A stretch of DNA of 64,000 nt from an uncultured Alphaproteobacteria bacterium (GTDB taxonomy: Bacteria; Pseudomonadota; Alphaproteobacteria; Rs-D84), in NCBI GenBank assembly GCA_944389385.1, contig CALXMC010000003.1, positions 10,356-74,355 of the forward strand. Reading direction: 5' to 3'. The position numbers and the translations under genes are program-made. The notes beneath the pieces were generated by a model that ran no database searches, had not been told where the DNA came from, and saw only the letters and a program-made list of their open reading frames with translations. Of the stretch, positions 55,009 to 59,861 are shown one piece after another. The stretch's first letter is position 1. The number at the start of each line of letters is the position of its first letter.

Positions 55009-55704
55009 GTGGCAACACGTATAGAACCGCCGATTTTACTGTCCAGATTGTTGATTTTTGTGTTCGCCGCAATGGTTGTTGTGTTGGGTGTATTGGGGGT
55101 TACATTATATAATATGTACCCGTTGGACAGACCCCAGATATTCTTTTTGATGACCGCGCCACAAAATAATCTGGATATTGTTGTGGCTGAGATGGTTCCC
55201 AATGAAGGCGAAATGTTTGATAATTTCAAGCGCACGTTTATTCGTGAATATATTCGGGCACGCAATGAAATCGTGCCAGATGCACGCATAATGCGCGAAA
55301 AATGGAGCAACGGTGCCGAAGGCGTCGTAAATTCTTGGTCAACATCGGAAATTTATAACGATTTTACAAAAACAAATATGTGGAACGCGTGGATGAGTGG
55401 CGTTCCAGATTTTGAATTTTCTTGTTCTGTTGAATTTGAAACTGGCGCAATCGAGCCACGCGATCGCGCAGGAACTGAATATTCGGTCAATTTCAGATAC
55501 TTTTGTTCAGATAGTGATAGACAGATGGATAAAAAAGATTATAAAATAAGGGTAAAGTTGGATATGGCGGACGGAACCCAAATAAAATGGGGGGAACGTC
55601 TGAATAATCCACTGGGGATACGTGTTTCTGAATATGTAATTGAATCGGGAAATGGCGACCCACTGGATACCGGGTATCTGGATACAACCGGCATAACCCA
55701 GTAG
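55009..55704 (+). CDS. virB8: Type IV secretion system protein VirB8
   Basis: GTG start at 55009 with RBS AAGGAGAGG 5 nt upstream. 231 aa. Short cytoplasmic N-terminus, one TM (LLIFVFAAMVVVLGVLGV), periplasmic NTF2-like domain with the VirB8 signature FKRTFIREYIRARNEIVPD. Confidence 0.65.
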   Translation: MATRIEPPILLSRLLIFVFAAMVVVLGVLGVTLYNMYPLDRPQIFFLMTAPQNNLDIVVAEMVPNEGEMFDNFKRTFIREYIRARNEIVPDARIMREKWSNGAEGVVNSWSTSEIYNDFTKTNMWNAWMSGVPDFEFSCSVEFETGAIEPRDRAGTEYSVNFRYFCSDSDRQMDKKDYKIRVKLDMADGTQIKWGERLNNPLGIRVSEYVIESGNGDPLDTGYLDTTGITQ

Positions 55705-55728
55705 CCACGAACAGGAAGGAAAACAGTC

Positions 55729-57264
55729 ATGACGTTTGCAAGTATGTTAAAATTAAATGTATCTGTGTTGTGCATTGCGATGCTGTGCGCGAATGCCTTG
55801 GCCGCGGAATATGGCATACAAAGTGCGTGGGATAACCCAACCGCCAATATGGCCGAAGGCAGTTTGAAGCCTGGATATGCACAATTGCCTTGGTCGCACG
55901 GCAGCGTTTTGCCCATCAAGTTGCGCAACGGAATGACCACTTTGGTCACATTGCCAAACGGCGAAAAAATTGCAGACGCAGTGGTGGGAAATGAAAATCT
56001 GTTTTCAATCGCTGCAACCCAGGGCGGCAGTACTATGTTTATTACACCCGCCGCATCAAATCAAGGATCTGATACAAACTTGATCGTCACGGGCGAGTCC
56101 GGCAATCAGTACATATTCTATCTGCGCAGTGAACCTTCTAATTCCAGCGAAATCACATATTCCCAGGTTGATATTACATTGGGCGATAATACGTTTTTGC
56201 CGAATGCCACAACGGCAACATCAACAAATGCGTCGGGGTCTATTTTCAAAAAGGTATCCAATGCCACAACGAATACAATCGGTGTTGATGGCGAGGATTA
56301 TGGTTGGATTAAATCCATGAAAATTGACCCGTCTGAATTCCGATTTGATTTGGATATTTTTGTTCCAAATCCAGACGATTATGTTATTGCACCTGAACGT
56401 GTGTGGCGCGACCAGATATTTACATACATAGATTTCGGGGACAAGGTTATTTCCATGACACAACGTCCGGTCGTATCACTGTTAATCGAGGGCGGCGAAT
56501 CCCCCGTCGGATTCCGCACCGATGGCGAAGATGGACGATTGCTGATTGTCGAGGCCGTTGGCGACATGGTTTTACGCAGTGGGCAACGTATCGTTTGTAT
56601 TAAAAAGCGTGCAAAGCCGTTCTTGATTGCAGATACAGCATCCGTTATGGCACTGGCCGAGGCGAATGTTGCACAATCCATCATGTCGGGACAATCGCTG
56701 AATAACATTGCATATACGTCCGATATGAATGCGATTAACGCGTCTGCGAATGGTTATGCAACCACACCGATGATGATGGGCAATATGCCGATGGGTGGCG
56801 CTACGTCTGGCTACTATGCGCCGGCGGGGTATGCAATGCCAACCCAGATGTATGGTGGCACCACTGGCGGCGGGACAAGCGGACTGAATATGATTCCAAC
56901 CGAAAGATTGACGGCGGGGTCATTCTTGCCCCAAACCAGTATCCCGCTGATTTCCAGTAATCAAACTGGGGTTGCGGTTGAATTAAAATCGGATACATCT
57001 GTCAAGGCATTGGATGATTATTGGGCAAACTTGTTGGCCAAGTTCAGTGGTGCTGATGGCCAAGGCATTTTGACCCCGTACAAGAACATGGTATATTTTG
57101 CCGTTGACGAACAAGGTGTTGGCGAATTGGGGGCTGAATCTTCGACTGCACGCTTGTATCGTTTACGCATTGGGCCTTTGTCCGATGTTGTAACAGCCCA
57201 AGAATTGTGCAATAAGTTATTGCAATTCAGCGGTACCAGTTGCAATGTCGTGCGGGTACAGTAA
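55729..57264 (+). CDS. virB9: Type IV secretion system protein VirB9/TrbG fused to a C-terminal SPOR (peptidoglycan-binding) domain
   Basis: Signal peptide MTFASMLKLNVSVLCIAMLCANALA. VirB9 N-domain TLVTLPNGEKI..ENLFSI..MFITPA and C-domain ..GRLLIVEAVGDMVLRSGQRIVCIKKR. Then about 130 aa of Gly/Met/Thr-rich linker. Then ..ARLYRLRIGPLSDVVTAQELCNKLLQFSGTSCNVVRVQ, which matches the SPOR consensus (yRvrvGpf..a..l..L). Confidence 0.7.
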   Translation: MTFASMLKLNVSVLCIAMLCANALAAEYGIQSAWDNPTANMAEGSLKPGYAQLPWSHGSVLPIKLRNGMTTLVTLPNGEKIADAVVGNENLFSIAATQGGSTMFITPAASNQGSDTNLIVTGESGNQYIFYLRSEPSNSSEITYSQVDITLGDNTFLPNATTATSTNASGSIFKKVSNATTNTIGVDGEDYGWIKSMKIDPSEFRFDLDIFVPNPDDYVIAPERVWRDQIFTYIDFGDKVISMTQRPVVSLLIEGGESPVGFRTDGEDGRLLIVEAVGDMVLRSGQRIVCIKKRAKPFLIADTASVMALAEANVAQSIMSGQSLNNIAYTSDMNAINASANGYATTPMMMGNMPMGGATSGYYAPAGYAMPTQMYGGTTGGGTSGLNMIPTERLTAGSFLPQTSIPLISSNQTGVAVELKSDTSVKALDDYWANLLAKFSGADGQGILTPYKNMVYFAVDEQGVGELGAESSTARLYRLRIGPLSDVVTAQELCNKLLQFSGTSCNVVRVQ

Positions 57265-59817: not shown

Positions 59818-59823
59818 GTGTGG

Positions 59824-59861
59824 GTTACTCGTGACTCGTTACTCGTGACTCGTTACTCGTG
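59824..59861 (+). repeat. Tandem heptad repeat array (5.5 units of GT[TG]ACTC) immediately after the virB10 stop
   Basis: TAG GTGTGG GTTACTC GTGACTC GTTACTC GTGACTC GTTACTC GTG. Confidence 0.8.

Follow-up and report, generated by a model that had tools for sequence, protein, structure and literature searches.

How does a strongly reduced bacterial genome come to hold the genes virB8, virB9 and virB10 of a type IV secretion system (T4SS), side by side amid housekeeping genes, with no T4SS ATPase gene next to them? The question is raised by a stretch of 64,000 nucleotides (hereafter the window; positions 10,356 to 74,355 of contig CALXMC010000003.1, assembly GCA_944389385.1) that belongs to Candidatus Enterousia, an alphaproteobacterium of the order Rs-D84 and not of the Rickettsiales. 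A preliminary description of the window had recognized the trio beside tRNA-Trp and secE-nusG, had noted that genes for ATPases and the coupling protein are missing, and had proposed either an operon split between distant sites or a locus decaying around repeats. Our analysis shows that the three genes are under purifying selection and that their arrangement is old and stable, not broken. We lean, if only slightly, towards regarding virB8-virB9-virB10 as the core module of a chromosomal T4SS that has been split up, similar to the rvh system of other Alphaproteobacteria or to ComB of Helicobacter pylori, with its other genes located elsewhere.

The trio consists of three intact and tightly packed open reading frames (ORFs) on the plus strand, which encode a VirB8-like protein of 231 aa (55009..55704), a VirB9-like protein of 511 aa (55729..57264) and a VirB10-like protein of 833 aa (57316..59817). 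The intergenic gaps measure 24 nt between virB8 and virB9 and 51 nt between virB9 and virB10, the latter being mostly occupied by heptanucleotide repeats (heptads). The virB8 gene starts with GTG, preceded by the ribosome-binding site AAGGAGAGGA, and the same 231 aa are encoded on identical contigs. The ORF list, ARAGORN and Rfam confirm the position that had been described: the trio is transcribed divergently from tRNA-Trp (CCA; 54714..54787, minus strand; Rfam tRNA, 63.3 bits) and from the minus-strand block that follows it in the order secE, nusG, rplK, rplA, rplJ, rplL, rpoB and rpoC. The first gene of this block, secE, lies at 54457..54636 (minus strand; ORF list, and PF00584 on the identical gene of locus L001; L numbers designate related loci).

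The three gene identities hold, each product scoring above the cut-off of its Pfam family. VirB8 matches PF04335 with 31.1 bits against a cut-off of 23.2 (E = 2.7e-7, aa 31-230) and combines an N-terminal transmembrane helix, LLIFVFAAMVVVLGVLGV, as read from the sequence, with a periplasmic VirB8 domain; as it has neither an NCBIfam match nor a PDB sequence match, we consider it a divergent member of the family. VirB9 matches PF03524 (CagX/VirB9/TrbG) with 77 bits against 34.2 (E = 2e-21, aa 52-293), as do 12 of 12 orthologues. Its score of 53.5 bits for the NCBIfam equivalog TIGR02781 stays below the cut-off of 217.7, which makes it a family member but not an equivalog of the Agrobacterium-type VirB9. 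VirB10 likewise exceeds the cut-off of PF03743 (TrbI; 59 bits vs 35) and remains below those of the VirB10 equivalog domain NF038091 (56.6 bits vs 220) and of the ComB10 equivalog NF038092 (45.6 bits vs 300). A sequence search against PDB chains gave no match to a solved T4SS structure for any of the three proteins; its sole match was to a Pro-rich low-complexity stretch and was rejected.

VirB9 is unusual in its C-terminal part. Following a signal peptide, the VirB9 domain and a Gly/Met-rich linker, it ends in a SPOR-like domain of ~95 aa (~aa 415-511). The SPOR profile PF05036 scores 16.3 bits on the window protein, below its cut-off of 21 (E = 0.013), and matches all 12 of the orthologues, with a best E of 4.4e-6. 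Moreover, the tail motif YRLRIGP...A..LC..L...G..C.VVR is kept out to the loci L090, L099 and L100 and to a Sphingosinicella plasmid.

VirB10 has the expected bitopic layout of an N-terminal transmembrane helix, a Pro-rich region and a C-terminal barrel. An AlphaFold2 model reached a mean predicted local distance difference test (pLDDT) of 72.4 with an alignment of 71 sequences that included distant TrbI domains, and only 43.7 with 31 close homologues instead. The model starts with a short cytoplasmic tail and a transmembrane helix (aa 17-39), continues with an ASH/PapD-like immunoglobulin (Ig) domain (aa 57-165, pLDDT ~95), a Pro-rich linker (aa 171-236, PEPEPIPEPEP) and a small beta domain (aa 240-305), and reaches a TrbI barrel (aa 390-610) in which two antenna helices (512-533 and 559-585) are predicted to be inserted. 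A C-terminal extension of 225 aa closes with a Cys-rich module (~790-833). In Foldseek searches the barrel matched TrwE/VirB10 (7o3j_A, E = 3e-10), as well as CagY, Xanthomonas VirB10, TraF (3jqo), ComB10 (2bhv) and DotG; against 7o3j, 3jqo, 6gyb and 6x6k, E ranged from 1e-7 to 3e-10 and the target TM-score from 0.54 to 0.64. The N-terminal domain matched ASH/PapD-like domains, including the ASH domain of CEP192 (6fvi). The predicted structure and the Foldseek matches together confirm the VirB10 fold, its antenna included.

VirB10 is the fastest-evolving member of the trio, with its variation concentrated in aa 61-240, 300-420 and 600-720, whereas the barrel and the N-terminal tail are conserved. 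The cytoplasmic tail and transmembrane helix are among the most conserved parts of the protein (invariant M1, Q7, S9, L11-K13, T15-H18 and Q20-W21; proportion of nonsynonymous differences, pN, 0.07), which fits a partner of VirB10 in the cytoplasm or the inner membrane. The last ~45 residues, GCCPGExYTDMGxxGFNCCPxxGGDCFPPI (window 59689-59814), form a disulfide-rich module that has not been described before. It occurs nowhere else within the window; in metagenomes it recurs, in two or three tandem copies, in the small secreted proteins P0185, P0207, P0214, P0229 and P0264. The neighbourhood of one small protein that shares the module contains a Lol/MacB-type ABC transporter and not a T4SS.

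The trio is not a peculiarity of one strain. VirB10 has hundreds of full-length relatives in gut metagenomes, and when one genome per GTDB species was scanned, relatives were found in 316 species. The best 80 of these 316 are metagenome-assembled genomes (MAGs) from the guts of humans, chickens, horses, ruminants and other hosts, under the names Candidatus Enterousia, 'uncultured Alphaproteobacteria' or 'uncultured Rickettsiales'. The order secE (minus strand), virB8, virB9, virB10, orf117 and orf127 (plus strand) and yidC (minus strand) is constant, wherever the contig reaches, in 81 related loci. VirB10 is full length and free of stop codons in 81/81 loci, at 49-71% identity; the same is true of VirB8 in 77/77 loci (43-84%) and of VirB9 in 78 of 81 (68-87%), the other three having partial coverage by a single high-scoring segment pair. 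The ratios of nonsynonymous to synonymous substitution (dN/dS; Nei-Gojobori, against four species) are 0.09-0.13 for virB8, 0.04-0.09 for virB9 and 0.11-0.16 for virB10. The three genes are thus not pseudogenes.

Outside the genus, trios with a SPOR-tailed VirB9 are found in L088, a termite-type JGI metagenome in which VirB9 is 59% identical, and in L103, a 194-kb contig of GCA_031283185.1. Both are located at quite different chromosomal sites, and neither has an ATPase gene within 10 kb. In the short contigs L099 and L100, virB9-virB10 are followed by unrelated genes. L090, a sister lineage, differs in that its cluster comprises virB8, a gene for a 58-aa lipoprotein (virB7), a second virB8, virB9 with its SPOR-like tail, a virB10 of 2287 aa and virB11, with no virB4 in 27 kb; VirB4 is therefore already apart from the cluster in a related lineage that uses an ATPase. 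The L090 VirB10 carries Bflower_2 domains and faint matches to RHS repeats, and ahead of this virB cluster (L090 641-6501) are seven consecutive ORFs for secreted, coiled-coil-rich proteins of 111-550 aa that belong to no family. Compared with L090 and with the B8-B9-B10-B11-D4 order of the Sphingosinicella plasmid, the cluster of the window indeed stops short after virB10, as had been reported. Likely, a T4SS of the conjugative type, equipped with a SPOR-tailed VirB9, came to reside in the chromosome; of its genes, which were scattered or in part lost, virB8-virB9-virB10 stayed together.

Where, then, is the rest of the machine? Within the window, Pfam scans that took in every ORF of 150 aa or more bear out the absence of ATPase and coupling-protein genes, and several negative results of this kind weigh against a split but complete system. 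These scans found no VirB4/CagE, T2SSE/VirB11, T4CP/VirD4 or TrbL/VirB6. The 10 kb on each side of the window in the same strain contain no VirB4, VirB6, VirB3, VirB2, VirB11 or VirD4: on the right are lspA, a Na/H exchanger gene, ksgA, recR, a gene for a penicillin-binding protein (PBP) with a SPOR domain, pyk, gapR, pyrG and comEC, and on the left are housekeeping genes and a resolvase gene. The absence of ATPase genes covers ~84 kb of the window strain, ~9% of a genome. A tblastn search with the proteins of the Sphingosinicella T4SS found, in 22 kb of each of the 81 related loci, no T4SS part beyond the trio, and the flanks of L088, L103, L099 and L100 hold no further T4SS gene beside it. 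The operon has no gene for a VirB7-like lipoprotein, though L090 has one; such a lipoprotein could be encoded elsewhere. One published analysis of Rs-D84 genomes mentions no T4SS (PMC12306168). Finally, with the VirB11 of L090 as query, the 120 best matches listed were all at least 66% identical and came from another alphaproteobacterial MAG lineage, a result that is uninformative on a VirB11 of Enterousia.

Some neighbours of the trio were considered as missing parts and rejected. The odd ORFs beside it in rearranged loci encode an ABC transporter, NrdD, LigA, ComEC, a PBP and a Stealth protein, and the large ORFs upstream of it in L088 and L103 do not code for VirB4 but for a leucine-rich-repeat protein and for secreted proteins rich in Cys. 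Those of L103 (4305-7519) are two secreted proteins of 811 and 261 aa rich in CC motifs.

Despite these negative results, several observations favour a split system. Every known T4SS needs VirB4, and split loci are normal in reduced alphaproteobacterial genomes. In L090, VirB4 is already separated from the cluster while VirB11 is kept, and the cytoplasmic tail of VirB10 is strongly conserved. In addition, the nearest annotated relative of the trio is a complete conjugative T4SS. The remaining T4SS genes are thus most likely located elsewhere on the ~1-Mb chromosome. The trio, which is fixed throughout the genus, would form a functional operon, and its products the envelope-spanning core of a divergent P-type T4SS. 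By homology, VirB8 would be an inner-membrane factor that nucleates assembly; VirB10 would be anchored in the inner membrane and span the periplasm to a pore of antenna helices in the outer membrane; and VirB9 would form a periplasmic and outer-membrane ring, tied to the peptidoglycan by its SPOR-like tail, which may replace the absent VirB7. VirB4, VirB6, VirB3, the pilin and possibly VirB11 or VirD4 would be supplied from other chromosomal loci.

The function of such a machine would probably be either contact-dependent exchange with a partner cell or uptake of DNA that feeds ComEC. The genomes of Enterousia measure ~0.75-1.0 Mb and lack a tricarboxylic acid cycle, a respiratory chain and standard transporters; a lifestyle that depends on partners was proposed for Enterousia (PMC12306168). 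The gene comEC (Competence and DUF4131 domains) is conserved across the genus ~10 kb downstream of the trio, being located there in the window strain (L093/L094, 1-1482, ~10 kb to the right of yidC) and in at least 13 related loci; it was located at 16854-18785 in L074 and also at the ends of L021, L031, L036, L041, L045, L056, L058, L070, L073, L078, L079, L081 and L083. Type IV pili were reported solely for the other lineage, UBA9783, and not for Rs-D84 (PMC12306168). Together with the fact that ComB works without VirB11 and VirD4, the proximity of comEC and the lack of reported pili make a ComB-like role in DNA uptake an attractive idea, if at this stage a conjecture by analogy.

Alternatively, the trio could be a repurposed core that stands alone: Enterousia and its relatives would have lost the T4SS ATPases and the inner-membrane channel, and VirB8, VirB9 and VirB10 would now act as an ATP-independent conduit or tether anchored to the peptidoglycan. 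We regard this as rather unlikely. It would agree with the absence of ATPase genes beside the trio in five lineages with readable flanks, virB11 of L090 excepted, and within the ~84 kb surveyed in the window strain. It would also agree with the persistence of the trio as a conserved unit even at differing genomic positions, and with the gain by VirB10 of an ASH/PapD-like Ig domain, a beta domain and a Cys-rich tail shared with small secreted proteins. The VirB7/9/10 core of pKM101 assembles by itself, and ATPases are not needed (the basis of PDB 3jqo). Finally, the extreme reduction of these genomes and their lack of standard transporters (PMC12306168) would suit such a function. A stand-alone core might serve the entry of nutrients or DNA into the periplasm, or attachment to partner cells, aided by the extra domains of VirB10. 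However, T4SS-derived cores that function in the absence of VirB4 are not known, and in reduced alphaproteobacterial genomes, as the rvh system illustrates, the loci are as a rule split. Moreover, L090 still has VirB11, the conserved cytoplasmic tail of VirB10 suggests a partner on the cytoplasmic side, and the absence of ATPase genes was established for ~9% of a genome. That Enterousia and its Rs-D84 relatives should have no VirB4 at all, and that hundreds of species should keep VirB8, SPOR-tailed VirB9 and VirB10 as an ATPase-independent conduit or attachment organelle, appears doubtful. If it were true, no T4SS core before this one would have been known to operate without its motor, and DNA or metabolites might, for example, reach ComEC and the periplasm in a partner-dependent bacterium that has neither type IV pili nor standard transporters.

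A recently acquired mobile element, such as a plasmid or an integrative and conjugative element, of which the trio would be a fragment integrated at tRNA-Trp, is a very improbable origin. tRNA genes are common integration sites, and the closest annotated relative is borne on a plasmid with a MobA/MobL relaxase. Furthermore, the virB locus is more diverged than its surroundings when compared with the nearest species, L007: synonymous divergence (dS) is 0.76-1.04 in virB8, virB9, virB10 and orf117, vs 0.17-0.41 in the flanking rpoB, rplA, nusG and yidC, i.e. two to five times as high. This excess suggests recombinational replacement of alleles or long-lived alleles at the virB locus. Nevertheless, the locus has no integrase, no relaxase and no direct repeat of the tRNA, its GC content (0.44-0.48) is in line with that of the rest of the window, its position is fixed across the genus, and a scan of viral contigs found nothing. 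The element may have integrated long ago and then been domesticated, but this would be an origin story and not a rival function.

The other proposal of the preliminary description, a decaying or recently truncated locus in which repeats mediated the loss of virB11 and virD4 and pseudogenes are now forming, could draw on the 1.27-kb repeat-rich tract 3' of virB10 and on the virB11, with or without virD4, that follows virB10 in relatives outside the genus, but it is scarcely credible and is refuted by the dN/dS values of 0.04-0.16, by the comparison of loci, in which the ORFs are intact, the order is fixed, the trio recurs in distant lineages and only housekeeping genes and no T4SS remnants lie beyond it, and by BLASTN of the tract, which is absent from 77 of the 78 related loci with both virB10 and orf117. 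Since the genes are not pseudogenes and neither virB11 nor virD4 lies in the 10 kb beyond the window, the original observation of a short cluster stands, and only the idea of decay falls.

The tract itself (59818-61088) is, as described, non-coding and rich in repeats. Its larger part is an insertion (59818..60860) that we detected with BLASTN and inverted-repeat searches and that is shared only with L007. Inside it are a repeat of ~105-210 bp, present twice (59840-60010 and 60509-60720), and, at 60087-60324, an inverted-repeat element whose 29-nt arms occupy 60178-60206 and 60295-60323. From virB10 to orf117 the gap measures 1271 bp in the window, 1207 bp in L007 and 221-389 bp in the 77 other loci; in L006 the short gap holds a clean intrinsic terminator. 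The tract is thus a late insertion into a cluster that was already short, common to one sister species only, and not the scar of a break. The metagenome contigs L001 and L093 end inside the insertion, which suggests a multi-copy element. An Rfam search of the tract gave nothing credible (best match WsnRNA46, E = 0.1).

The DNA between the insertion and orf117 (60860..61088, plus strand; BLASTN and consensus scans) is conserved, with 70-77% nucleotide identity over ~190 bp (60860-61051) in more than 20 species. It comprises a terminator-like hairpin (60890-60907), a promoter-like site (61062-61090) and short palindromes of the ATCGAT/AATCG type, and the conserved 60860-61051 segment may be a regulatory region or a small RNA. 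The two genes that follow, known from the ORF list and alignments, encode conserved small proteins. orf117 (61089..61442, plus strand), predicted to be cytoplasmic, is probably its own transcription unit. Its product has a mean column identity of 74% and the invariant motif QLWFWFLYSK...RRAPHQYIW, is present in 78 loci and has no match in Pfam, NCBIfam or PDB. Within Enterousia the gene always comes next after virB10; it is not 3' of virB10 in L088, L099, L100 and L103. orf127 (61528..61911, plus strand; 75 loci) has invariant C18, H23 and C87 and no family match in Pfam or NCBIfam. Its 3' end overlaps that of yidC, which is convergent with it and is followed by lspA.

As noted earlier, heptads occupy the spacers of the cluster: the heptad pattern has 15 matches vs 0.5 expected by chance, and the window contains three arrays of at least three heptads (GTNACNN) vs none in shuffled sequences. 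In the window strain such arrays occur only at the three virB gene boundaries, with none elsewhere in the window and none in L093-L098 (10 kb on either side). The first, of GTTACTC-like units (54915-54941), is enclosed by a palindrome (54902..54955; 26-nt arms with A6/T6 tracts) detected as an inverted repeat 55-105 bp upstream of the virB8 start. The second (57265..57292, plus strand; Tandem Repeats Finder) fills the virB9-virB10 spacer with the four units GTTACTG, GTTACTC, GTAACTC and GTTACTT, and the third (59824..59861, plus strand; Tandem Repeats Finder, period 7/14) has five units directly 3' of the virB10 stop codon. Weaker copies are found at 60507-60527, 61899-61912 and 26138-26151. 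Related arrays are present at the same boundaries in L006/L014, L007, L011, L013 and L039 and are lacking in the remainder of the genus; that of the virB9-virB10 spacer is found in L006, L011, L013 and L039. The palindrome has a predicted fold of -24.9 kcal/mol (z = -5.4), and its outer arms, GCAAGCAAAAA/TTTTTACTTGC, are kept in L006, there without heptads; it is possibly an operator or a bidirectional terminator. Except for the array inside it, the heptads show no significant RNA fold (z ~ -0.5). As they are restricted to a subclade and show no significant fold, we do not regard them as a conserved regulatory site or as a marker of other T4SS loci.

Two further observations concern the window at large. 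The usual gene linkage is tuf-tRNA-Trp-secE. Pfam scans found no tuf (GTP_EFTU) anywhere in the window, including the segment upstream of tRNA-Trp (54788-55008), and this linkage is broken throughout the genus. In addition, the window encodes an outer-membrane repertoire that is chlamydia-like, in an alphaproteobacterium (38921-41605, minus strand; 21485-22960, minus strand; 3099-4100, plus strand). It includes a protein of 894 aa that has Chlamydia Pmp repeats, one of 491 aa that matches the Protochlamydia outer-membrane protein (Pom) family and, as a third member, a weak match to an autotransporter beta-domain.

Among annotated systems, the trio most resembles the conjugative P-type T4SS on plasmid p1 of Sphingosinicella sp. 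BN140058 (NZ_CP035502.1), a similar one being present on a plasmid of Erythrobacter aureus. The VirB9 proteins are 38% identical over aa 30-294 (E = 2e-45), the B8-B9-B10 order is the same, and the p1 VirB9 also ends in a SPOR-like tail (motif RLRVGP...C...SCSVV). However, the p1 system is complete and contiguous, with a MobA/MobL relaxase, VirB2-like and VirB3-like proteins (the latter a small ORF at the VirB3 position without a Pfam match), VirB4, two proteins of no known type, VirB8, VirB9, VirB10, VirB11 and VirD4, whereas Enterousia has only VirB8 to VirB10, encoded on the chromosome amid housekeeping genes. Its VirB10 has 833 aa compared with 548 aa on p1.

The rvh system is the chromosomal T4SS of genome-reduced Alphaproteobacteria; it is split over several loci, virB8, virB9 and virB10 are adjacent, and virB11 and virD4 come after virB10. 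The L090 cluster, B8-B7-B8-B9-B10-B11, is rvh-like in its order. In the window, by contrast, virB10 is followed by orf117, orf127 and yidC instead of a contiguous virB11-virD4 pair, and the host belongs to Rs-D84 and not to the Rickettsiales. In rvh, neither a VirB9 with a SPOR tail nor a VirB10 with an Ig domain is known to us. In the ComB system of Helicobacter pylori, the comB6-10 operon is apart from comB2-4, VirB11, VirD4 and VirB5 are absent, and DNA is passed to ComEC (PMC12857230). The Enterousia locus is similar in its B8-B10 operon, in having no VirB11 or VirD4 nearby, in the comEC gene ~10 kb away and in the structural match of VirB10 to ComB10 (2bhv). Nevertheless, ComB needs ComB4 (VirB4), no equivalents of ComB4, ComB2, ComB3 and ComB6 were found in the DNA examined, and equivalents of ComB6 and ComB7 are absent from the Enterousia locus itself.

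With the cores of pKM101 (TraN/O/F), R388 (TrwH/F/E), Xanthomonas and Cag, the trio shares the VirB10 barrel and its two-helix antenna, as judged by Foldseek, and the VirB10 of Enterousia resembles CagY in being enlarged and fast-evolving. Unlike these systems, the Enterousia operon has no VirB7 gene, and attachment to the peptidoglycan would be achieved by the SPOR-like domain fused to VirB9; known parallels for peptidoglycan binding are separate subunits, such as Legionella DotK, and not a VirB9 fusion. The gene families themselves are not new, and VirB9 and VirB10 would be named by automatic annotation. In the literature searched, neither a T4SS in Enterousia or Rs-D84 nor a SPOR-tailed VirB9 is described; what is new is the combination of an isolated B8-B9-B10 set across and beyond the genus, the fusion of VirB9 to a SPOR-like domain and the large size of VirB10, with its Ig domain of the ASH type and the Cys-rich module that it shares with secreted proteins. 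Enterousia and Rs-D84 are widespread gut bacteria with genomes of ~1 Mb, no recognized nutrient transporters and a suspected dependence on partners (PMC12306168), and for interaction with a partner or scavenging of DNA an envelope-spanning machine, kept intact in all genomes examined, is an obvious candidate. Set beside the systems above, the locus marks out a T4SS lineage whose VirB9 would have a peptidoglycan anchor of its own and whose core trio persists in isolation across several uncultured lineages.

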